Below are positions 42,184 through 52,574 of a DNA stretch of 64,000 nucleotides, piece after piece. The DNA lies in NCBI RefSeq assembly GCF_013167455.1, contig NZ_CP038328.1; one strand, 5' to 3'. Both the position numbers and the translations under genes were made by a program. Each line of letters opens with the position of its first letter. Position 1 is the first letter of the stretch. Under the pieces are notes generated by a model. That model was given only the letters and a program-made list of their open reading frames with translations, made no database searches and was not told where the DNA came from. Source of the stretch: Escherichia coli O157:H7 (lineage in GTDB: Bacteria; Pseudomonadota; Gammaproteobacteria; Enterobacterales; Enterobacteriaceae).

Positions 42184-43224
42184 TTAACTCCCCTTTTCCT
42201 CAGATTCAGGTTTGCCCGGGAACATGACGCTTGCGAGAATGCCCAGCGCCAGTACACCCAGTACAACATACAGGCTGGTTGTTGCCGCGATGCTGTAACC
42301 ATGATGCCAGATGTGATCGGTCGCATTCAGGCCGAGTTTTGCCGCGATGAAGAACAGCAGCACGATAACGGCCTTCTCCAGATGAACCAGGTACTGTTTC
42401 AGTGCCTCAAGGACAAAATACAGAGTACGCAGACCCAGGATAGCAAACATCATGGCACTATAGACGATAAGCGGTTCACGACTGACGGCAATGATTGCCG
42501 GTACCGAGTCAAACGCGAACATTACGTCCGAGAGTTCAACCACAGCCACACACAGGAACAGCGGGGTCGCATACAGCGCCGCTTTTTTACCACGGCCAAT
42601 GGTGACATCGCTGTTTTCTGGTTTCGCCAGTTCAGCATCCACTTCCTTCTGGTTAAGTAGGAAGGCATGCCCTCTGAGCTTCGGCCAGATAGGGAAGAAG
42701 CGTTTAACCATACGGTAAGCCAGATGCTGGGAGTAATCCTCAATTTCATCATCGTCATCACCGCTTTTAAGCATCATGACCGCCGTCCAGGCAACGATAA
42801 TAGCGAAGACAACTTCAACGTACGGCCCCAGACTCAGCAGGCTCGTACCGATGGCGACAAAGATGCCCCTGAAGACGATGGCACCAATGATCCCCCAGTA
42901 GAGAACACGGTGGCGATAACGATCCGGAACGGCGAACCAGGAGAAGATTGCCATCATGACGAACAGGTTATCGACCGACAGCACTTTCTCCAGCGCATAA
43001 CCCGTGACAAACAGACTGGCAACCTCAGCACCGTGGTGGATATAGAGGAAACCGGCAAATGCCATCGCAACCACAACCCAGAATACGGACCAGAGCGCAG
43101 CACTCTTCAGCGAGATTGGCTTGTCATCACGGTGCATAAACAGGTCAATAAAGATGGCACCGACTGAAAGCGCAATAAAAACAATGACCGTTTCAGTCGG
43201 GAAGCCGATGTGTGTGGAAACCAT
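42184..43224 (-). CDS. terC: Integral membrane protein TerC
   Basis: 346 aa polytopic membrane protein. Confidence 0.9.
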   Translation of the reverse strand: MVSTHIGFPTETVIVFIALSVGAIFIDLFMHRDDKPISLKSAALWSVFWVVVAMAFAGFLYIHHGAEVASLFVTGYALEKVLSVDNLFVMMAIFSWFAVPDRYRHRVLYWGIIGAIVFRGIFVAIGTSLLSLGPYVEVVFAIIVAWTAVMMLKSGDDDDEIEDYSQHLAYRMVKRFFPIWPKLRGHAFLLNQKEVDAELAKPENSDVTIGRGKKAALYATPLFLCVAVVELSDVMFAFDSVPAIIAVSREPLIVYSAMMFAILGLRTLYFVLEALKQYLVHLEKAVIVLLFFIAAKLGLNATDHIWHHGYSIAATTSLYVVLGVLALGILASVMFPGKPESEEKGS

Positions 43225-43246
43225 ATTTTACCCTTAGGGATGTGGA

Positions 43247-43702
43247 TCAGAGGCCAAATTCAGCCGGGTCGAAGCCCAACGCGATAGCGATCTCGCGGGA
43301 GGCCAGTTTCTCGTCCTGATCGAAGTTACCGTCACTTTTCGCAACGGCAATACCAACACGTAAGGCCAGCTGAGCGGCCTCAGGCTGATCTTTCAGCGCC
43401 AGGATGTATTTCATGGTTTCGCCCTTGCCAATTTCAACATCGAAATCGAAGCTTGAAACCAGTTTATTGAAGAACTCAATCACCTCATTGGTATCGAAGA
43501 CCTTCAGCTCTTCTGAAGAGCGCAGAAAGCCCATCATTTTCTGCTTTTCTTCCGAACTTACGCCGTCACTCGATACGGCAATACGGGCACATACAGCAAC
43601 GGTGCCCTGCATGAATTTTTTGTTTTTGAAACGGCCAACCTGGCGGGTCAGTTCGTCACGGCCTGAGTTAATGGCACCTTTAACTTTGTCGAAAAAGCTC
43701 AT
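43247..43702 (-). CDS. terB: Tellurium resistance protein TerB
   Basis: ORF track 43247..43762; start at MSFFDKVKGAINSG (ATG 43700-43702); 151 aa. Confidence 0.9.
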   Translation of the reverse strand: MSFFDKVKGAINSGRDELTRQVGRFKNKKFMQGTVAVCARIAVSSDGVSSEEKQKMMGFLRSSEELKVFDTNEVIEFFNKLVSSFDFDVEIGKGETMKYILALKDQPEAAQLALRVGIAVAKSDGNFDQDEKLASREIAIALGFDPAEFGL

Positions 43703-43724
43703 ACCTGTTTCCTTTGTTGCTGTG

Positions 43725-44882
43725 TTATTTAGAACCGGCGCTCCAGCGAAATCCCCAGCCAAATGCCCGGTCCATTTCGTCCTGGCCTTTGAAGTACTGG
43801 TTAATTCGCTCGACTTTAATTGCGCCGTTTTCGTTTACGAGTCTGGCAATGGCGCACAATGTGCGACGGTTCTCACCTTCGGTCAGGCGGGTCTCAATGG
43901 GTGGTTGATCCGGCACATGAATGGTGACTACACCATCAGTCTTGTCCCAGCTGGGAACACCTTCATAAATAAAGGCGTAAATCAGCACTTCGCGGATATG
44001 CTTCCATTCACGTCCATTGATATGCAGCCACTCGCCGTCTGATACATCACCCGTCCGGTCATCGCCCTTGAGCTGAACATACGGTTCATCGCGATAATCA
44101 CCGAATGCATTACCGAGCGCCTGAATGACCGATTTATACCCGTCCTGAAGCTCAACAAAGGCCCCCAGATCCAGGTCGATTCCTTTGGAGCCGAACATAC
44201 CTGCAAAGCCTGATTTGCTACTGCCCCGGTGCCAGTTCAGGTTGATCCGGATTTCACCGAAGTTATCCCGTTTGGTCAGGCTGATTGCAGGCTTCTCTTT
44301 TGTCAGCGATACCTTGCTCAGGCTGATTTTTGTCTCAACTGGCGGAGGGGTTACAACCGGAGGAGTTGGGGCTGCGGGAGCCGGTTCGTCGGCAATATTT
44401 ACGCCGAAATGCTCTGCCAGCGGTTTAAGTCCACCGTTGAACCCCTGCGCAACGAAGCGGAATTTCCAGTCATTATTACGACGGTAAAATTCCCCCAGAA
44501 TTAAGGCTGCTTCCTGACGGCCGCTCAGTTCGACACTGCCGCTAACCAGGCCGGTAGCCCCTTGCTCCACGTCGATGGAAAGATTACGAAGACCGGACAC
44601 CGTCTGCCCACCGTCACAGGTCACGGTGAACGCAATTTTCTGGACATCAGGTTTCAGCCGGTTGAGCGCGACAGTAAAGGTTGAGTACTGGCCTTCACTG
44701 ACCAGGCTGACGGTACCATCATCGTTACGTGGCTGACCATAAAACACCATGTCCGCATCACCCTGCACCTTCCCGTCGGCATACAGGCGAAACGCCGAAG
44801 CATCCACCTGGCCGCCCGAGGTGATCCGGACCCGCAACTCCTGGGCTGGAACGGGGGCATTGCCCCCCGGCGTCAGGTTCAT
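43725..44882 (-). CDS. terA: Tellurium resistance protein TerA
   Basis: 385 aa with TerD-like domains. Confidence 0.9.
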   Translation of the reverse strand: MNLTPGGNAPVPAQELRVRITSGGQVDASAFRLYADGKVQGDADMVFYGQPRNDDGTVSLVSEGQYSTFTVALNRLKPDVQKIAFTVTCDGGQTVSGLRNLSIDVEQGATGLVSGSVELSGRQEAALILGEFYRRNNDWKFRFVAQGFNGGLKPLAEHFGVNIADEPAPAAPTPPVVTPPPVETKISLSKVSLTKEKPAISLTKRDNFGEIRINLNWHRGSSKSGFAGMFGSKGIDLDLGAFVELQDGYKSVIQALGNAFGDYRDEPYVQLKGDDRTGDVSDGEWLHINGREWKHIREVLIYAFIYEGVPSWDKTDGVVTIHVPDQPPIETRLTEGENRRTLCAIARLVNENGAIKVERINQYFKGQDEMDRAFGWGFRWSAGSK

Positions 44883-45463
44883 TAGCGAATAACCGCTGAA
44901 ACGATATCGGAGTGCATATCGTCAATTGTGCGGCCGCGACAGGCATGGCCAAGGGCGGTAAAGTCCCAGTTGCCGTTATTACGGCGCAGCGAAGAAATAA
45001 CGATCCCGGTATGTGAGCCCTGCTCAGTCAGCTTGTAGCGAGCCAGCTCTTTGCCGGTTTGATCGACAACGCGGCAGAAAGCGTTTTCGACGTCATTGAA
45101 CGACTGACCACGGAAGCTGTTTACCGTAAACGCCAGGTATTCAACGTTTGCAGGCAGGCGGGAGAGGTTGACCTTAATCACTTCATCGTCACCGTCACCC
45201 TCACCGGTCAGGTTATCGCCACTGTGCACAACAGCGCCGCAGGTGGATTTCAGTTTGCGGAACCAGATGGTGTCAATTGTTTTACCTGTGCTGTCCATTA
45301 ATACACAGCCAGCATCGAGATCGATTGAGTCGTTGCCTCCAAACAATCCTCCAAGAAGACCTTTTTTCTTAACCGGATCCCAACCGAGACCGAAATGAAG
45401 CTGGCTTAATGCAGATGATTCTTTGCTGAGTGATACCGTCTGGTTCTTAACTAATGAAACCAT
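44882..45463 (-). CDS. terZ: Tellurium resistance protein TerZ
   Basis: 193 aa MVSLVKNQTVSLSKESSALSQ...; first gene of the terZABCDE string. Confidence 0.9.
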   Translation of the reverse strand: MVSLVKNQTVSLSKESSALSQLHFGLGWDPVKKKGLLGGLFGGNDSIDLDAGCVLMDSTGKTIDTIWFRKLKSTCGAVVHSGDNLTGEGDGDDEVIKVNLSRLPANVEYLAFTVNSFRGQSFNDVENAFCRVVDQTGKELARYKLTEQGSHTGIVISSLRRNNGNWDFTALGHACRGRTIDDMHSDIVSAVIR

Positions 45464-45709
45464 GTTTTATTCCTTAAAATGGTAATGACCGAGACAATCA
45501 AAGGTATATTTAGTAACTGACGAAGAAAATCATATCATGATGAAGTTCTCTGACAAGGGAAATTTTTGTGGTTTTCTGTAAAAACACAAAAAGAAATCCT
45601 TTTCAGGGTGTTAGTTTTTCTATTTTTAATTTAAATATCAATGTGTTATAAGGAATCCAAAAAACACTGACGCACTCCATAACCACAGGAGTTATTAATC
45701 ATATTATGA

Positions 45710-45738
45710 TTGACATGTAGCTTAGACACTCATAGACT
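45710..45738 (+). promoter_or_regulatory. Candidate sigma-70 promoter for the ATP-grasp operon
   Basis: TTGACA at 45710-45715, 17-bp spacer, TAGACT at 45733-45738; about 48 bp upstream of the ATG. Confidence 0.35.
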
Positions 45739-45785
45739 CACTTCTCAATCATAAATTTGCATGGCGTTCCGGATAATTAAAAAAA

Positions 45786-46844
45786 ATGAACAAGAAAATT
45801 TGGTTTATGGAAGGTTTATCCTCCCAGCGAGATATTATTCAGGGGGTAAAATCATTTGCACAAAAAAATAATTTTGCCATTACCGTTTTTGCCTCCCACC
45901 GTAACGAAAGAAATGAAATCCTTTCCGTTGCCGATTATTCTTTGACTGAACCTGAAGATCCTCAAAAACGTCTTCAGTTTATCCAGGAAACCATTCAGAC
46001 CTACGGCATCCACCATATTCATACTGGCCGTAACAGCCAGTGGTTTGAAGAACACCGTTCAGCCATTGAACCGACCGGTGCCACCCTTACTACCGGTGCA
46101 ACGGGCGTCGACTGGTTAACTCTGGCTGACGAAAAAGTTACTTTTGCTCAGTTTATGGAGCAAAAGGGTCTCCCGGTCGTACCATCCTGGCGGGTGAATA
46201 CGCTGGCAGAATTAAAGACACACCTCGCGGCCCCGCCGTTCACTGACAGCCCGGTATGCGTGAAGCCGGTGACGGGTATCTATGGCATGGGATTCTGGCG
46301 CTTTGATGACAGTGCTTCGCCTATGGCCGTCTTTAATCATCCCGAACATCGTCTGGTCAGTCCGCAACAGTATATTGCAGCAGCATCAGCTGCTGAGTCG
46401 TTTAAACCCCTTGTTTTGATGCCGTACCTGCCAGGCCCGGAATTTTCCGTCGATATCCTCGCGGATAAGGGCGAAATACTCGCAGCCGTGGGACGCCGTA
46501 AGGAAGGGGCTATCCAGTATCTGGTAAACGAAGGAAGCGCCTGGGAACTGGCGTGTGACTGCGCCCGTGTTATGAAGGCCGACGGGCTGGTGAATGTTCA
46601 GACGCGAAACGATGTGAATGGCAACCCGGTGCTGCTTGAAACCAACATGCGTCCGTCAGGGGGGGTGGGTTATACCCTTCACAGCGGTGTGAACCTTCCT
46701 GGGTTATTTGCTGCCTTTAAGCTCGGTCTGATGTCTGAAGATATGGTACGCCAGAGCGCTAAAAACACCTTTTCTCCGGTTGCGGTGAGATCCATTACGG
46801 ATGTAATTGCATACCCGGAATCACTCTCTAACCTTCTGAATTAA
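45786..46844 (+). CDS. ATP-grasp domain protein (ter-associated biosynthetic operon)
   Basis: 352 aa; first gene of a co-directional, tightly spaced operon. Confidence 0.7.
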   Translation: MNKKIWFMEGLSSQRDIIQGVKSFAQKNNFAITVFASHRNERNEILSVADYSLTEPEDPQKRLQFIQETIQTYGIHHIHTGRNSQWFEEHRSAIEPTGATLTTGATGVDWLTLADEKVTFAQFMEQKGLPVVPSWRVNTLAELKTHLAAPPFTDSPVCVKPVTGIYGMGFWRFDDSASPMAVFNHPEHRLVSPQQYIAAASAAESFKPLVLMPYLPGPEFSVDILADKGEILAAVGRRKEGAIQYLVNEGSAWELACDCARVMKADGLVNVQTRNDVNGNPVLLETNMRPSGGVGYTLHSGVNLPGLFAAFKLGLMSEDMVRQSAKNTFSPVAVRSITDVIAYPESLSNLLN

Positions 46845-46853
46845 GGCGTATTT

Positions 46854-47996
46854 ATGTCTGATATCCTCGAAGATATGATTTATCGCCGTACCCTCTCATG
46901 CGGTACGATTCAGGTAACCCGTGACCAGGGTGAAGTTTCGCTCGATGACCTGTTTGACATCGCTGAAAGACGTAACCCGAAACGCGCCTTTCTGTTTGTC
47001 AGCAAAGTACTCGGCAGGCACATTCCCGTGCCACCCTCAGTCATGCGGCAGGCCTACAGACAGCTTGCCAGCCAGTTCCCCTCGACACTGACAGGACCCG
47101 TACTGTTTATCGGTATGGCTGAAACCGCCGTTGGGCTTGGGGCCGGTGTATTTGATGAAGTGCGCCACCAGCATCGTGAATCTGTCTATCTGACCTCTAC
47201 CCGTCACCCGGTTGATGGCACGTTGCTTTGCGAGTTCAAGGAAGAACACAGCCACGCCACCGATCATCTGATCTATCTGCCAGATGATGAAGAGAAAAGA
47301 CGTCGTGTTACCAACGCACGAACGCTGGTTTTGATTGATGACGAGGCAACCACCGGTAATACCTTTATTAACCTGCTTTCTGCCCTGCGTAATACCGGCA
47401 AGCTTCAACATATTGAACAGGTTATCGCCGTAACGCTGACCGACTGGAGTGGCAATGCCCTGTCGGAGCGCACCCCCTTGCCCGTCACTTCGGTTTCGCT
47501 TGTAAGCGGTCAGTGGGGATGGACCCCATTACCTGATGCACCTGTCCCGGACATGCCGAAAGTCAACGTAACTTCACGAGGAGAATGGGACATCCAGGGG
47601 AAACAGTCATGGGGCCGACTGGGGATGCTCGCACCTGCGGCCGATCTCGGCCATGAGGTCTCCGTCCACAAGGGGGAACGTATTCTGGTTCTCGGGACCG
47701 GGGAATTCGTCTGGGAGCCGTTCCTGCTTGCTGAACGGCTCGAAGCTGCCGGAGCACAGGCATTTTATGGATCGACCACCCGCTCCCCTGTCGCCGTTGG
47801 TTATGCCATTGAGTCCGCCATTTCCTTTACGGATAACTACGGGCTGGGCATCCCCAATTTTGTCTATAACGTCGCCCACCAGCAGTTTGACCGCATTCTT
47901 GTGTGTACTGAGACACCCGCAGAAAGTATTGACACGCAGCTTCTTAAAGCGCTGGCTGAGGTTGCGCCCGTCGTGGAGATTGTTACCTATGAATAA
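46854..47996 (+). CDS. Phosphoribosyltransferase-domain protein
   Basis: 380 aa; PRPP-binding type motif VLIDDEATTGNT. Confidence 0.75.
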   Translation: MSDILEDMIYRRTLSCGTIQVTRDQGEVSLDDLFDIAERRNPKRAFLFVSKVLGRHIPVPPSVMRQAYRQLASQFPSTLTGPVLFIGMAETAVGLGAGVFDEVRHQHRESVYLTSTRHPVDGTLLCEFKEEHSHATDHLIYLPDDEEKRRRVTNARTLVLIDDEATTGNTFINLLSALRNTGKLQHIEQVIAVTLTDWSGNALSERTPLPVTSVSLVSGQWGWTPLPDAPVPDMPKVNVTSRGEWDIQGKQSWGRLGMLAPAADLGHEVSVHKGERILVLGTGEFVWEPFLLAERLEAAGAQAFYGSTTRSPVAVGYAIESAISFTDNYGLGIPNFVYNVAHQQFDRILVCTETPAESIDTQLLKALAEVAPVVEIVTYE

Positions 47997-48762
47997 ACCC
48001 GTTGTTCTGAGCGACCTTGACGACACGCTCTTTCAGACCCGTCGTAAAATGGTGGACGAGCTGGCCCTGGAGCCATTCCGTACCGGTGCCGTTGATCGCA
48101 CCCTGAATCCACGAAGCTTTATGACGGAAGAACAGTCCATGTTGGTGGACTGGCTCCTGGAGCAGGCTGAACTCATACCCGTTACCGCACGGGGAACTGA
48201 AGAAATCAGCCGCGTACGGATCCCTTTCCACTCCTGGGCAATCACAACGCACGGGGCCGTCATTCTCACGCCTGAAGGCAAACCCGACGAGGAGTGGAAG
48301 GCCCATATGCTCGGCCAGCTGGCTCCCTACCAGGAAAAGCTGACATCGATGCAGCGTCTGATCACTGAAATGATGGACGCAAAAGGAATCAATGCCTGGG
48401 CAAGGCTGAACTTCGAATACGGTGAAACGGCGGTTTATATGGTGATGAAACACCGCGACAGCACCCGCCTTGACGAGCTCAATGCCATTGCAGATGAGAT
48501 AGAAACGGTGTTTCCGACCGAGGGCTTCTACATCCACCGCAACAGTAATAACGTGGCCTGGCTTCCCACCCCGGTTGAGAAAGGGCTGGCAGTCAGCTGG
48601 CTGCTTGAAAAACTTCGGGCTGAACGAGGAGTTTTCCCCGTAATTGGTTTGGGCGACAGCCTGAGCGATCATCGTTTTATGAAACTGTGCAGCTGGTTTG
48701 GCATCCCGCGTCAGAGTCAGTTTGCAGATGCCATTTCACAGCGAATTTTTGGAGAAAATTAA
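47989..48762 (+). CDS. HAD-superfamily hydrolase
   Basis: ORF track 47653..48762; start at MNKPVVLSDLDDTLF (ATG 47989, overlapping the upstream stop); DxDxT motif. Confidence 0.75.
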   Translation: MNKPVVLSDLDDTLFQTRRKMVDELALEPFRTGAVDRTLNPRSFMTEEQSMLVDWLLEQAELIPVTARGTEEISRVRIPFHSWAITTHGAVILTPEGKPDEEWKAHMLGQLAPYQEKLTSMQRLITEMMDAKGINAWARLNFEYGETAVYMVMKHRDSTRLDELNAIADEIETVFPTEGFYIHRNSNNVAWLPTPVEKGLAVSWLLEKLRAERGVFPVIGLGDSLSDHRFMKLCSWFGIPRQSQFADAISQRIFGEN

Positions 48763-48763
48763 A

Positions 48764-49843
48764 ATGCAGCCACATGAAACATTTACCGGCTCATACCAGC
48801 CCGGTGACGTGGAATTTCTGCTAAAGCCGGTTGTCATTGAGATGACGCCGGTTGAGAAAAAAGAAGAACTGATTCAGTCCGGGAAGAAACATTATTCGGA
48901 CATGCTCAGCCAGGAGCCAGCGCCTACACAATGGCATCTTGATTTGTTTCACCGGGCGCTGGATCGGGGCGCAGAGAGGCTTGCAAAAGAAGTCACACAG
49001 CTCGCTATTGCTCTGGCCGAACGCTTCGGTGATGAGCCCATTGTACTGGCCAGTCTTGTCAGGGCTGGCGTTCCGCTCGGCGTTATGCTGCACCAGGCCC
49101 TGCGTGACATGGGGAAAACCTCATGGCATTACGGTATCAGCATTATCCGGGATCGTGGAATTGACGGTGCAGCCCTCGACGTCATTGAAGAGCGGCATGG
49201 TACCAGCGGTATTGTCTTTGTTGACGGATGGACAGGTAAAGGCGCAATTACCGGAGAGCTTGTACGCGCACTGAAAGATCGCCCGGGCTATCCTGAGCAG
49301 CCGCGACTGGTTGTCCTGGCCGATCCCTGTGGCTGCTCCTGGCTTGCAGCCAGTGATGATGACTGGCTCATTCCTTTTGGCATCATGGGGGCGCCGGTAT
49401 CAGGCCTGATCTCCCGGTCAGTATGGTCCTCTGAAGGATTACACGGGTGCATGGTTTGCGAGCATCTCAGTGAATTCGAATGCAGCCGGATGCTTGCCGA
49501 TACCGTCGCTCATTTCCGTAAGAAGTTAACACCGTCATCCCTCGCTCCCCTGAGCTGGAATACGGAATCAGCCCGGGTCTTATGGCAGACAAGTCGCGAC
49601 GTTATCGCGTTCCTGGCCGATGAATTTAAAGTGGACAGCGTCAATCGTATTAAACCCGGTATTGCTGAAGCAACCCGGGCTGTATTACGTCGGGTACCGG
49701 ACCATGTATTTGTGCGTTCTATTGACGACCCGGACGTTGCCTTGCTTGTAGGGCTTGCTCGTGAAAAGGGAATAGTTGTTACAGAAATGGGGGGAACCCT
49801 CGGCCAGTATCGGGCTGTAACCATTATCAAGAAGGTACTCTGA
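48764..49843 (+). CDS. Ter-associated protein of uncertain function (possibly StiP-like / PRTase-like)
   Basis: ORF track 48698..49843; start at MQPHETFTGSYQPGDV (ATG 48764, one base after the HAD stop). Confidence 0.5.
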   Translation: MQPHETFTGSYQPGDVEFLLKPVVIEMTPVEKKEELIQSGKKHYSDMLSQEPAPTQWHLDLFHRALDRGAERLAKEVTQLAIALAERFGDEPIVLASLVRAGVPLGVMLHQALRDMGKTSWHYGISIIRDRGIDGAALDVIEERHGTSGIVFVDGWTGKGAITGELVRALKDRPGYPEQPRLVVLADPCGCSWLAASDDDWLIPFGIMGAPVSGLISRSVWSSEGLHGCMVCEHLSEFECSRMLADTVAHFRKKLTPSSLAPLSWNTESARVLWQTSRDVIAFLADEFKVDSVNRIKPGIAEATRAVLRRVPDHVFVRSIDDPDVALLVGLAREKGIVVTEMGGTLGQYRAVTIIKKVL

Positions 49844-50799
49844 TGAAAAATCGTCTTTCTCCCTGGAATCTGGGAGCCACGCTATACATGCCTGCAACAC
49901 GGGAAGATATTGCTGATGCCGTCCTGCACGGGAAAATCCCGGGCTTGCGCTCTCTGGTGATTTGCCTGGAGGATGCTGTCAGTGAAGCAGACATCCCCGT
50001 CGCCCTCAAAAATCTGGAGCACCTGCTGCACGAGCTCAGTAACAGCATGAGTAGCCTGGGTAAAAATGACTGGCCTCTGGTGTTCATTCGCCCCCGGCAT
50101 GCCGAAATGGGCAGATGGTTAAAAGCGCATTATGATCTTTCCGCTGTCGACGGGTTTGTGCTGCCTAAATTTACCCTCAGTTCGTTAGCTGAATGGTGGG
50201 ATATCATGGTCGGGACTCACCTGTGCATGATGCCAACGCTGGAAACAGAAGATGTCTTTGACGTGGTTCAGATGCGCGAGCTGGCTACCCGTCTGGAGGA
50301 ACATCCCTGCCACGACCGCATTATTGCGCTTCGAATCGGCGGCAACGATCTTATGAACGTTGTGTCGCTTCGCCGTCCCCGGGACCTGACGCTGTATGAC
50401 AGCCCGATGGGCTACGTCATCAAAATGCTCGTTTCGGTCTTCGGCCCGCGTGATTTTGCCCTGACCGCGCCTGTATGTGAGCATATTGACGATCATGCCG
50501 TTATGGCCAGAGAGCTGGCTCTTGATATGGCACACGGGCTTGTTGGGAAAACGGCCATTCACCCGGGTCAGATAGAGGTCATTCAAAACGCGCTGATGGT
50601 CACTCAGGGTGAGCATTCTGACGCTCTGCGGATCCTGAACTCTACCCAGGCCGTGTTTAAGTCGCAGGGAGCAATGTGTGAACCCGCCACACATCGCCGC
50701 TGGGCGGCTGGCATTCTGGACAGGGCTCGTTTTTATGGGTTACAGAACGAGCAAAGCGCTGATGGAATCAGATTACTTACCGTGACCCAGCATCATTAA
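49843..50799 (+). CDS. HpcH/HpaI aldolase / citrate-lyase beta-subunit-like TIM-barrel protein
   Basis: 318 aa; start overlaps the upstream stop (TGATG). Confidence 0.65.
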   Translation: MKNRLSPWNLGATLYMPATREDIADAVLHGKIPGLRSLVICLEDAVSEADIPVALKNLEHLLHELSNSMSSLGKNDWPLVFIRPRHAEMGRWLKAHYDLSAVDGFVLPKFTLSSLAEWWDIMVGTHLCMMPTLETEDVFDVVQMRELATRLEEHPCHDRIIALRIGGNDLMNVVSLRRPRDLTLYDSPMGYVIKMLVSVFGPRDFALTAPVCEHIDDHAVMARELALDMAHGLVGKTAIHPGQIEVIQNALMVTQGEHSDALRILNSTQAVFKSQGAMCEPATHRRWAAGILDRARFYGLQNEQSADGIRLLTVTQHH

Positions 50800-50809
50800 G
50801 GAAATCATA

Positions 50810-52018
50810 ATGGGGTTCAGGTTCAGAAAGTCGATCAACATTATTCCTGGCGTTCGCCTCAACCTGAGTAACGGTGCACCGAGCCTGAGTGTCGGGCCGA
50901 GAGGTGCTTCCGTTTCTTTTGGTAGCCGGGGGACCTATGCCAATCTGGGCTTGCCCGGTACCGGGCTGAGTTACCGTACCCGGCTTGACCGGGCCGCGCG
51001 TTCCAGAGGTGAAAACCGGACGGCAACCGACCCGGGGCTCAGACAGGCGCTTGAGCAGAAAGCCGCTGAACTCATGTCAGCGGTAACCGCAATCCGTAAT
51101 ATTCACGAGCTGACGCCGGATCCAAAAACAGGCATCAGCTGGGCAGAGCTGGAAGCAGTATACCTGCATAACAGAACGTCGCCTTTTCAGGTTCCGGCAC
51201 CGGTGCGTCCAGAAAAGCCAGACTACCTTGTATTGCCGGAAAAGCCTGCCGAGAGCGAAGGCATTAGTTTTTTGGGTAAATGGTTTGAATCGGAATCAGC
51301 TAAAGCTGAGCGCCACGCCGAAAATCTTCGCCGGTGGCAGCAGGAGCTGATTGATGTGGAGCGTGAGAATACCCTTCGACAGCACCGGTACCAGCAACAA
51401 CGGACGGCCTGGGCCGAACAGTATGCAAACTGGAAGTTTGAAGCTGAAGAACATGAAAAACGGCTCGCCACGGCTCAGGCAGATGCCCGGCAGCAGTTCC
51501 GGACAGACGCCGCGTTTTTCGAATCATACCTGGCGGGTGTGCTGGCAGAAACTGAATGGCCGCGTGAAACGCTTGTTGCATTTGAAGTAAAGCCGGAGCT
51601 ATCAGCAGTCCTGCTGGACGTTGATTTAGCTGAGATTGAAGATTTCCCTGATAAGATTTACGGCGTTAATGCCCGGGGAACGGAGCTGACGGAAAAAGCC
51701 ATGACGCAAAAAGCCGTACGCGAAAACTATGCCCACCACGTCCATGGCTGCTTGTTCCGCCTGGTCGGTATCGTTTTACATACGCTACCTTTCGACAACG
51801 TGATTGTGTCAGGCTTTACGCAACGGGTCAGTAAGCGGACCGGCTATCTGGAGGATGAGTATATCCTGTCCTGCAAATGCACTCGCAGCCAGATGTCGTC
51901 AGTAAATTTTGCAGGCATAAAACACATTGATCCGGTTGAAGCGTTAGGCGATCAACCGGTTATTCGAAAGATGAGCAGTACCTTCATTTTTCAGCCTATT
52001 GAACCACTAACCCTTTAA
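50810..52018 (+). CDS. DUF4236-like protein with a coiled-coil rich middle region
   Basis: 402 aa; N-terminus MGFRFRKSINIIPGVRLNLSNGAPSLSVGPRGASVSFGSRG. Confidence 0.5.
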   Translation: MGFRFRKSINIIPGVRLNLSNGAPSLSVGPRGASVSFGSRGTYANLGLPGTGLSYRTRLDRAARSRGENRTATDPGLRQALEQKAAELMSAVTAIRNIHELTPDPKTGISWAELEAVYLHNRTSPFQVPAPVRPEKPDYLVLPEKPAESEGISFLGKWFESESAKAERHAENLRRWQQELIDVERENTLRQHRYQQQRTAWAEQYANWKFEAEEHEKRLATAQADARQQFRTDAAFFESYLAGVLAETEWPRETLVAFEVKPELSAVLLDVDLAEIEDFPDKIYGVNARGTELTEKAMTQKAVRENYAHHVHGCLFRLVGIVLHTLPFDNVIVSGFTQRVSKRTGYLEDEYILSCKCTRSQMSSVNFAGIKHIDPVEALGDQPVIRKMSSTFIFQPIEPLTL

Positions 52019-52035
52019 GCAGGCTAAATCTTACG

Positions 52036-52503
52036 ATGCAATTAAATACCAGACAGGCCCGGATTTTTAAGCTTGCCAACTTACTGGGCACCGGCAAGCC
52101 CGTTTCCGCTGCCGACATTATAACCAGTCTGGAATGCTCTGAGCCGACATTAACCCGGGCCCTCAAAGAGCTACGCGAGTCATATTCTGCGGAGATCAAA
52201 TACAGCAAGGCAGGTCATTCCTATCATCTCGTTAATCCGGGCCAGTTGGATAAAAAGACCCTCCGCCGGATGAATGAAGCGCTCGCACAGAATGCTGAAC
52301 TGAAAACCGGTGAGTCCACAGGGAAGGTCGTACTCGATAAGGATAAAAAAACAGCCGTGTCATTATCGCTACGCATGCGGATTCTAAGAAAAATTGACCG
52401 TCTGGCTGCGCTGAGTGACTCGACCCGAAGTGAAGCGGTAGAGAAGCTGGCTCTGCACTCCGTTGATGAACTGATAAAAGAATACAGCGCTAAAAAGTCC
52501 TGA
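52036..52503 (+). CDS. terW: HTH DNA-binding protein, TerW-like
   Basis: 155 aa, size and position consistent with the TerW regulator of ter clusters. Confidence 0.6.
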   Translation: MQLNTRQARIFKLANLLGTGKPVSAADIITSLECSEPTLTRALKELRESYSAEIKYSKAGHSYHLVNPGQLDKKTLRRMNEALAQNAELKTGESTGKVVLDKDKKTAVSLSLRMRILRKIDRLAALSDSTRSEAVEKLALHSVDELIKEYSAKKS

Positions 52504-52516
52504 CGCTAAATCTCAG

Positions 52517-52540
52517 ACCGGGGTGAAAACTCCGGTTTTG
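52517..52540 (+). terminator. Possible terminator after the TerW-like gene
   Basis: GACCGGGGTGAAAACTCCGGTTTTG. Confidence 0.4.
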
Positions 52541-52574
52541 TCATATTTCACCTCTGTATTGGCGTGATGCAAAA

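Follow-up and report, generated by a model that had tools for sequence, protein, structure and literature searches.

The seven genes that run divergently from terZ in the Escherichia coli O157:H7 tellurite/adherence island are best read as a Ter-associated biosynthetic module making a nucleoside-like molecule, a reading to which we assign a probability of about three in four. The cluster itself is already known: it was described in 2012 and is present in thousands of genomes. The comparative-genomic prediction of a pathway that the sequence-only reading mentioned does exist, and in it the module is predicted to produce a nucleoside-like molecule (Anantharaman, Iyer and Aravind, 2012, Mol Biosyst 8:3142).

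Organization of the Locus

The window, by which we mean the whole 64-kb stretch of DNA analyzed, shares 100% DNA identity with the E. coli O157:H7 tellurite/adherence island, and the module within it is 98–99% identical to plasmid copies in many enterobacterial genera. Seven co-directional ORFs occupy positions 45786–52503 of the + strand and coincide with the RefSeq gene calls in the identical O157:H7 chromosome. They encode, in order, an ATP-grasp ligase of a Ter-specific family (352 aa, 45786–46844), a PRTase_2 phosphoribosyltransferase that ends in a TRSP domain (380 aa, 46854–47996), a IIB-like phosphatase of the HAD superfamily that RefSeq calls a “hypothetical protein” (257 aa, 47989–48762), a protein that combines “StiP” (PRTase_1 in earlier Pfam naming) with PELOTA_1 (359 aa, 48764–49843), a predicted HpcH/CitE-like C-C bond lyase with a TIM barrel (318 aa, 49843–50799), a DUF4236 protein (402 aa, 50810–52018), and TerW, a small putative winged-helix DNA-binding regulator (155 aa, 52036–52503). 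With gaps counted as positive and overlaps as negative, the six junctions measure 9, −8, 1, −1, 10 and 17 nt in order, and the set is flanked by one promoter-like and one terminator-like site. Near-abutting genes starting 322 bp from terZ had been described from the sequence alone; the RefSeq calls and coordinates match that description, and profile searches reproduced each of the gene-family assignments made with it.

The divergent partner on the − strand (40104–45463), recognized from ORFs and RefSeq annotation, is the terZABCDE operon with a short terF-like gene: terZ (44882–45463), terA (43725–44882), terB (43247–43702), terC (42184–43224), terD (41557–42135), terE (40913–41488), and the short TerD-family gene (40104–40490).

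Distribution and Synteny of the Module

The same cluster occurs on ∼1,250 plasmids. Among 5,426 complete genomes of E. coli, 1,178 gave a match, and the genes are confined to islands and plasmids. The Ter linkage of the enzyme set holds across 80 genomes, with ter genes at 75 of the 80 related loci. Among loci with enough flanking sequence, which included Enterobacterales, Pseudomonas, Burkholderia and others, the order PRTase-HAD-StiP-lyase was kept in 73 of 74, and this four-gene core retains its synteny with ter genes in two classes of Proteobacteria. The module diverges from terZ in 37 loci and lies co-directionally upstream of it in 35. Neighboring enzymes are also joined by gene fusions, namely PRTase with HAD (P0122, P0135, P0188), ATP-grasp with PRTase (P0176), and HAD with StiP, while a two-gene form consisting of a PRTase and a putative HAD was found at the one distant locus examined. 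Two Pfam names, ATPgrasp_Ter and StiP, are themselves tied to the Ter context, with PRTase_2, TRSP, PELOTA_1, and C-C_Bond_Lyase alongside.

Genes and gene order are identical to those of the module of Anantharaman et al. (2012), carried by IncHI2 plasmids (e.g., R478) and Klebsiella virulence plasmids, which reads ATPgrasp_Ter, PRTase_2-TRSP, HAD, PRTase_1(StiP)-PELOTA_1, and C-C_Bond_Lyase, divergent from terZABCDE(F), followed by terW. The genomic features that define that module are present here: PRTase_2-TRSP, an adjacent HAD gene, StiP-PELOTA, the lyase and ATP-grasp, and linkage to terD-family, terC and terB genes. The ter modules of Pseudomonas and Burkholderia, including a P. aeruginosa plasmid locus whose HAD protein has been crystallized as a “trehalose-6-phosphate phosphatase” (PDB 6CJ0, 6D3V, 6D3W), share the four-gene core at 36–55% protein identity, with the HAD protein orthologous over its full length. 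They differ in being co-directional with and upstream of terZABCDE, in having, in many cases, an extra TerD-like gene, and in lacking terW, DUF4236 and the palindromes described below; the P. aeruginosa plasmid locus also has an annotated extra HAD-IB gene.

The O157:H7 island departs from the plasmid module downstream of terW, where the plasmid version continues with terY1-terX-terY2-TerY-C-PP2C-kinase genes that are missing from the island. Homology to the plasmid versions ends at 52567, 64 bp past terW, and the segment at 52568–52763, which lies outside the system, marks the start of inserted mobile DNA, with four ∼23 bp repeats (52584–52673) followed by IS66-family genes. A single E. coli genome may carry this repeat segment at as many as 34 sites. 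Inserted IS66-family DNA has replaced the terY-terX-TerY-C-PP2C-kinase genes in O157:H7. Repeats at 52575–52673 had been suggested for a TerW binding test in the sequence-only reading; because they lie in inserted mobile DNA, they are not sensible TerW targets. Against the anti-phage models of PADLOC-DB v2.0.0, the module gave weak matches only (PRTase_III-A, E 1e-3; WYL, E 3e-5 for TerW), and the plasmid terY-to-kinase proteins gave none.

Core Enzymes and Predicted Chemistry

The phosphoribosyltransferase matches Pfam PRTase_2 (PF15609, E 3e-63) and TRSP (PF12500, E 4e-23), and its PRPP loop, LVLIDDEATTGNT, follows the type I phosphoribosyltransferase pattern of a hydrophobic strand, two acidic residues and then T/S-G-x-T. 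Among 50 sequences of 34–61% identity, the motif D162-D163-E164-x-T-T-G-x-T varies little or not at all, with D162, D163, E164, T167, and T170 conserved across the set. The ATP-grasp protein was assigned to ATPgrasp_Ter (PF15632, E 4e-37) in a profile search with a concatenated query and shows weak matches to CPS-like ATP-grasp families in NCBIfam; K160 and the signature E285-x-N287-x-R289 are invariant among 31 homologs. Since its gene is present in 55 of 73 loci, we regard it as accessory. The DUF4236 gene, found in 2 of 80 loci, is likewise accessory and frequently lost.

The lyase has a strong match to Pfam C-C_Bond_Lyase (PF15617, E 4e-113). A profile search against the PDB returned CitE, RipC, and malyl-CoA lyase chains (best E 6e-10), aligned mainly over the C-terminal half. 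Acidic and arginine residues are conserved in the protein; the invariant E43, D44, R83, R85, E134, and D169 are candidate metal-binding or catalytic residues. Its scores lie far under the NCBIfam equivalog cut-offs (34 bits vs. 375 for RipC), and its N-terminal half can barely be aligned.

In the proposed pathway, PRTase_2 would couple an acceptor to PRPP to give a 5-phosphoribosyl compound, from which the HAD enzyme would then take off the 5-phosphate. The C-C lyase would make or tailor the acceptor or a side chain, ATP-grasp, where present, would add an amide-linked group, and StiP-PELOTA may either add a second ribosyl group or serve as a PyrR-like nucleotide-sensing RNA binder. A precedent for the two-step chemistry is CriT/CrpP, a structurally solved pair of PRPP-dependent ribofuranosyltransferase and HAD phosphatase from capsule/O-antigen synthesis (Bcs3, PDB 8A0C; 7SHG). 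Were the StiP-type PRTase itself to work as CriT does, the product would be something other than an N-linked nucleoside: the enzyme would place ribofuranose-5-phosphate, taken from PRPP, on a hydroxyl of a sugar, riboside or RNA, after which the HAD enzyme would dephosphorylate it like CrpP. We consider this unlikely. No sequence relation to CriT/CrpP is detectable, the ter locus contains no glycan-assembly genes, and Foldseek does not place CriT/CrpP chains near the top.

The StiP-PELOTA Protein

The fourth protein carries Pfam StiP and PELOTA_1 domains, and fold searches resolved it into a PRTase fold and an L7Ae/Pelota-like fold. Behind the label “StiP-like” stands a second PRTase-fold domain attached to an L7Ae/Pelota-like domain, with no demonstrable protease. 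The loop VFVDGWTGKG contains a single acidic residue (D154-G155) vs. two in the type I PRTase loop, which leaves catalysis by StiP uncertain, and in a profile-profile comparison it matches PRTase_2 poorly (E 0.008, probability 5%).

The protein may instead be a PyrR-like sensor, its PRTase-fold pocket binding the nucleotide-like product and its L7Ae/Pelota-like domain binding RNA, such that Ter would be regulated at the RNA level. PyrR, the UMP-sensing RNA-binding regulator of pyrimidine operons, has a PRTase fold 22–24% identical to that of StiP in structural alignments, and the attached L7Ae/Pelota-like domain makes an RNA-binding role plausible; PyrR differs in using the PRTase fold itself for RNA and in having no PELOTA domain. 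No known RNA families were found in the locus, and the HAD+StiP fusions suggest an enzymatic partnership, leaving the sensor as an outside chance. PyrR itself retains PRTase activity, so sensor and enzyme roles would be compatible.

Taken at its RefSeq name, StiP would be a cysteine protease that processes Ter proteins instead of contributing to biosynthesis. The name in RefSeq and Pfam goes back to work on the StiP protein of Acinetobacter baylyi (Reichert et al., 2013). Two cysteines, C189 and C229, hardly vary, as would suit a Cys-His pair, and H122, H145, H227, and H234 are invariant, but the PRTase and L7Ae/Pelota-like folds are not those of a protease, and we consider this candidate highly improbable.

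The HAD Phosphatase and Trehalose

All four HAD motifs, I (DxDxT), II (T/S), III (K), and IV (GDxxxD), are present in the phosphatase, and D9, D11, T13, T66, K198, D223, and D227 show little or no variation across 35 sequences, among them a distant member of a putative two-gene system. The protein is a full-length relative (E 3.7e-43, 36% identity) of the “trehalose phosphatase” of PDB 6D3V/6D3W/6CJ0 and is the ortholog of this crystallized Pseudomonas aeruginosa “trehalose-6-phosphate phosphatase,” whose gene sits within a ter module on a plasmid. The name comes from the PDB depositors and some GenBank records. Cross and co-workers are said to have assayed the recombinant ortholog with trehalose-6-phosphate in 2018. 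The published in vitro substrate is trehalose-6-phosphate rather than a ribotide, which counts against the ribotide reading and would suit a true trehalose-6-phosphate phosphatase in a cluster serving trehalose or osmotic-stress metabolism.

Such a role appears very doubtful to us given the surroundings of the gene. Neither the 31 kb surrounding the module nor the P. aeruginosa module has an annotated gene for trehalose-6-phosphate synthase, the partner that an OtsA/OtsB-type pathway would need, and Pfam Trehalose_PPase matches the protein only at E 0.018. Scores against the NCBIfam HAD-IIB, MPGP, and sucrose-phosphate-phosphatase-subfamily models are far under the curated cut-offs. In 73 of 74 loci the HAD gene lies between two PRTase genes, to which it is fused in several genomes. 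The published biochemistry and crystal structures of the ortholog do not settle the pathway. The statement that the product is biochemically undefined agrees with papers of 2021–2025, which say the same, and with the absence of a reported product from the papers of 2015–2025 consulted here; it needs amending in that the HAD ortholog has published biochemistry and structures.

TerW, the Control Region and Transcription

The last gene (52036–52503) is named “tellurium resistance protein TerW” in RefSeq, and its HTH matches are weak. TerW was detected in 32 of 80 loci, only among Enterobacterales, and is described in citing papers as controlling ter transcription (Valkovicova et al., 2011). The 322 bp that separate terZ from the ATP-grasp gene (45464–45785) form a divergent control region, with two sharply conserved blocks across 24 Enterobacterales. 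It contains a + strand promoter-like site (45710–45738, 10/12 matches) 48 nt before the first ATG and a − strand one on the terZ side (45556–45529, 10/12 matches), although promoter-like and terminator-like matches are no more numerous than in shuffled sequence. The palindrome AATCATATCATGATG (45528–45542) overlaps with the terZ promoter-like site at its −10 hexamer, and AATCATATTATGATT (45697–45711) with the + strand site at its −35 hexamer; these are the only two matches to the motif in the 64-kb window. The palindrome occupies the same relative position in 32 of 32 TerW-bearing loci and is missing there in 45 of the 48 loci where no TerW was detected, every Pseudomonas and Burkholderia locus among them. 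This co-occurrence is confounded by phylogeny in that every TerW-positive locus belongs to the Enterobacterales. A Pectobacterium paper equates the conserved palindrome with the TerW-protected region of Valkovicova et al. (2011). The palindromes at 45528 and 45697, in the terZ intergenic region that the sequence-only reading also named for a binding test, are likely candidate TerW operators and sensible TerW targets, and through them TerW probably represses both divergent promoters.

In Pectobacterium RNA-seq data the five enzyme genes form one operon that is co-repressed with terZABCDE; terW, preceded there by a 350-nt gap, is regulated on its own. Junctions of ≤17 nt are compatible with the seven-gene operon proposed from sequence, which stays putative as a single transcript given this separate regulation of terW. 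A terminator-like hairpin with a T run (52515–52538, + strand; dG −14.9 kcal/mol, z −3.3) starts 12 nt past the terW stop, and its sequence also comes after terW in a Citrobacter plasmid. The counter-possibility named in the sequence-only reading, that seven unrelated housekeeping enzymes, each transcribed on its own, came to lie side by side by accident, would sit well with the chance-level promoter and terminator counts but is refuted by synteny and fusions, and the overlapping junctions, the confinement to islands and plasmids, and the co-regulation in Pectobacterium leave it practically no chance.

Place of the Module in the Ter System

In E. coli K-12, terZ-F alone confers tellurite resistance, so the enzyme module is dispensable for the phenotype that gave the system its name. 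The predicted nucleoside-like product would act on the membrane complex of TerB, TerD and TerC.

Gene Content and Genomic Setting of the Ter-Linked Module

The seven ORFs at 45786–52503, divergent from terZ (44882–45463, − strand), all lie on the + strand with junctions as stated in a sequence-only reading, and agree with the RefSeq gene calls; consecutive junctions measure +9, −8, +1, −1, +10, and +17 nt, and the distance to the terZ start is indeed 322 bp. A mechanical ORF list offers longer alternatives for the third and fourth genes (47653–48762 and 48698–49843); both would run into the preceding gene, and alignments with homologs favor the shorter RefSeq starts.

The first gene (45786–46844) encodes an ATPgrasp_Ter protein (Pfam E 4e-37) retaining K160 and E285-x-N287-x-R289, and the second (46854–47996) a PRTase_2 plus TRSP protein with an intact PRPP loop, DDE-x-TTG-x-T. 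The third product (47989–48762), “hypothetical” in RefSeq, gave weak HAD-IIB matches, and its four HAD motifs are conserved (D9, D11, T66, K198, D223, D227). The fourth (48764–49843) is assigned by Pfam to StiP, formerly named PRTase_1, plus PELOTA_1, and the fifth (49843–50799) to C-C_Bond_Lyase (E 4e-113; this value and that for the ATP-grasp protein come from a single artificial concatenated query). The lyase retains E43, D44, R83, R85, E134, and D169 and aligns, mostly over its C-terminal half, to solved CitE, RipC, and malyl-CoA lyase chains. The DUF4236 match of the sixth product (50810–52018) covers its first 56 residues only, and the seventh (52036–52503), TerW according to RefSeq, gave weak winged-helix matches. 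Pfam family descriptions themselves name the Ter operon. When the ATP-grasp, PRTase_2, StiP, and lyase proteins were searched as single sequences against the PDB, no useful match was returned, and PADLOC gave no meaningful match for the seven proteins or for the terY-to-kinase proteins of the plasmid-borne locus. The sole Rfam match in 39500–53500 was a sub-threshold anti-hemB, so that no RNA family was identified there.

Many E. coli O157:H7 chromosomes match the 7.3 kb around the module at 100% identity. A match to this stretch occurs in 1,178 of the 5,426 complete genomes of E. coli, and the region is 98–99% identical to ∼1,250 plasmids from Escherichia, Salmonella, Enterobacter, Klebsiella, and Citrobacter. 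The region belongs to the O157:H7 island for tellurite resistance and adherence; in the RefSeq annotation of an identical record, that island also holds iha, urease genes, and terZABCDE. Within it, the iha siderophore receptor/adhesin gene (37500–39590) lies upstream of the ter genes, and the last ter-side gene (40104–40490), encoding a short TerD-family protein of 128 aa, adjoins a transposase remnant.

Synteny, Gene Fusions, and Co-Regulation

We collected 80 genomic loci with a PRTase_2-TRSP relative, from Enterobacterales, Pseudomonas, Burkholderia, Shewanella, Photobacterium, and others, and mapped the window’s proteins onto them. The order PRTase-HAD-StiP-lyase was found in 73 of the 74 loci with enough flanking sequence, and ter genes accompany the module in 75 of 80; it is divergent from terZ in 37 loci, as in the window, and co-directional upstream of terZABCDE in 35. 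Of 73 loci, 55 have an ATP-grasp gene; terW occurs in 32 of 80 (all Enterobacterales) and DUF4236 in only 2 of 80. Fusion proteins join PRTase with HAD (three independent clusters), ATP-grasp with PRTase, and HAD with StiP (two genomes). The last are single HAD/StiP-PELOTA ORFs in loci from Pantoea sp. IMH (L034, 11106–12956, 617 residues) and Hafnia psychrotolerans (L080, 11112–13022, 637 residues); they are apparent gene fusions, with sequencing error possible. In Pectobacterium versatile, published RNA-seq places the five enzyme genes in one operon that PhoP represses together with terZABCDE; terW responds in the opposite direction and has its own PhoP site. Because of the synteny counts, the fusions, and the Pectobacterium co-regulation, the alternative that these are unrelated housekeeping genes is excluded. 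The comparison defines a four-gene core and a set of accessory genes.

Several loci vary on this arrangement. A Xenorhabdus japonica locus (L082, 11128–11453) is the only one of the 74 in which HAD went undetected between PRTase and StiP. Of two distant PRTase_2 representatives on short contigs, one probably has a two-gene form, with just the PRTase and a neighboring 231-residue product that keeps the HAD motifs, and the other an unrelated context. Pseudomonas loci differ from the window in carrying genes absent from it: the P. aeruginosa plasmid CP109686.1 has an extra gene, for a HAD-IB hydrolase, separating the C-C lyase gene from terZ (L089, 11787–12515), where other Pseudomonas loci such as L049 show a similar-sized gap (∼750 bp), and in many an additional TerD-like gene sits between those for ATP-grasp and PRTase.

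The DUF4236 protein is Ter-associated and accessory, and forms no core step of the pathway. Full-length relatives occupy the same position in Aeromonas, lie among TerD-family genes without the enzymes in Psychromonas, and in Truepera occur in an unrelated context. In Yersinia nurmii the sequence separating the lyase gene from terW (L010, 13962–14245) retains fragments matching residues 272–295 and 315–402; the gene was therefore lost there by decay.

The HAD Phosphatase and a Crystallized “Trehalose Phosphatase”

Along its whole length, the HAD protein matches the “trehalose phosphatase” structures 6D3V, 6D3W, and 6CJ0 (36% identity, E 3.7e-43). The crystallized protein is 99.6% identical to the product of a gene on P. 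aeruginosa plasmid CP109686.1 (L089, 8995–9753) that sits in a ter module, flanked by PRTase and StiP genes, and 93% identical to the module counterpart in ∼115 P. aeruginosa plasmid records (370–417 kb among the matches listed) and in Pseudomonas defluvii. The enzyme was reportedly published by Cross and colleagues in 2018 as a trehalose-6-phosphate phosphatase. Neither the window locus nor the P. aeruginosa module has an annotated trehalose-6-phosphate synthase gene, so trehalose-6-phosphate is more likely a surrogate substrate and the natural one a glycoside phosphate supplied by the neighboring PRTase; the trehalose annotation is probably a surrogate-substrate label. A solved precedent exists in CriT/CrpP of capsule synthesis, in which transfer from PRPP is followed by HAD-type removal of the 5-phosphate. 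The sequence-only reading had allowed for published biochemistry that settles the pathway; partial biochemistry does exist for this HAD ortholog, and it leaves the pathway unsettled.

The StiP-PELOTA Protein

RefSeq names the StiP product a cysteine protease. Two fold-search programs argue otherwise: their lists show a PRTase-type fold, with HGPRT and PyrR at the top of the Foldseek ranking (probability ∼1), and contain no protease fold. The assignment of a type I PRTase fold with an attached L7Ae/Pelota-like domain is robust and agrees with the 2012 prediction. The two programs disagree on the nearest kin, one favoring O-ribosylating CriT-like enzymes and the other PyrR-like sensors. The StiP PRPP loop has one acidic residue only, and hhalign aligned the expected loops of StiP and PRTase_2 at low confidence, which made the fold search necessary.

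The Ter product might differ from a plain N-nucleoside, an unlikely reading to which we give roughly one chance in seven. StiP-PELOTA and HAD would then carry out a CriT/CrpP-like O-ribosylation of a riboside or RNA, or StiP-PELOTA would couple product sensing to RNA binding, the outcome being an RNA-linked or doubly ribosylated signal.

The terZ Control Region and TerW

Conservation of the 322-bp control region, profiled across 24 Enterobacterales, peaks in two blocks, both copies of the palindrome AATCATATYATGAT (45528–45542 and 45697–45711) and its only matches in the window. The first overlaps the −10 hexamer of a promoter-like site for terZ and the second the −35 hexamer of a + strand promoter-like site. 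Each of the 32 loci with terW has the motif at an equivalent position, and it is missing there in 45 of 48 without detected terW, including all from Pseudomonas and Burkholderia, a co-occurrence that is confounded by phylogeny; the three exceptions, from Enterobacterales and Shewanella, retain a copy. The two palindromes are likely candidates for TerW operators.

A stable hairpin followed by a T run, conserved on the plasmid, comes after terW. Upstream of the plasmid terY1, no copy of the terZ-region palindrome was found within 3 mismatches. The terW-terY1 interval of a Citrobacter plasmid (L002, 17290–17325) has a different palindrome, ATGTATGA-N6-TCATACAT, upstream of terY1, which might correspond to the third TerW site reported for Pectobacterium; the stretch holding it has been lost from the window.

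Homology to the plasmid locus stops at 52567. The plasmid has terY1, terX, terY2, TerY-C, a PP2C phosphatase, and a kinase after terW; in the window their place is taken by an IS66-family element (52568–57600; tnpA at 52764–53093, tnpB, and a split tnpC) with a complete IS682 (54364–56780, − strand) nested inside tnpC. Four direct repeats of ∼23 bp ending in TTTGGCAT (52584–52673) lie near the start of the inserted DNA; no inverted copy of this segment was found at the far end of the insertion within the window. The repeats at 52575–52673 had been put forward as TerW targets. They fall beyond the end of plasmid homology, in inserted DNA, and the segment recurs at as many as 34 sites in other E. 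coli genomes, so they do not belong to the ter locus and the proposal is abandoned.

Implications for the Ter System

A Ter-associated pathway had been anticipated from comparative genomics. Papers from 2015 to 2025 citing Anantharaman, Iyer and Aravind (2012) bear this out, relaying from that work the prediction of a nucleoside-like metabolite as the module’s product. The fullest account among them (2021) describes the module’s function and link to the TerC complex as unclear, and our literature search found no paper identifying the product, in keeping with the earlier view that it is biochemically undefined. Since terZ-F alone suffices for tellurite resistance in E. coli K-12, the module’s role is a different one or a modulatory one.

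The finding is real and was correctly interpreted; the system was already described and the locus is very well known. Our additions are incremental: the split between core and accessory genes, fold evidence for StiP, the “trehalose phosphatase” link, candidate operators, and the truncation of the O157:H7 locus by IS elements. Enterohaemorrhagic E. coli, hypervirulent Klebsiella, and IncHI2 resistance plasmids widely carry the ter locus, which has been tied to gut fitness as well as to resistance against tellurite, phages, and colicins. The window contributes no new kind of system; the re-analysis sharpens how the product question can be tested, by separating core from accessory genes, showing StiP as a PRTase-fold protein with an RNA-binding-type domain, pinpointing likely TerW operators, and connecting an already crystallized “trehalose phosphatase” to the Ter pathway. 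If the O-ribosylation or sensing reading held, the Pseudomonas enzyme published as a trehalose-6-phosphate phosphatase would be the dephosphorylating step of that pathway, and an RNA-linked or doubly ribosylated signal would drive Ter-mediated resistance to phage, colicins, and stress.
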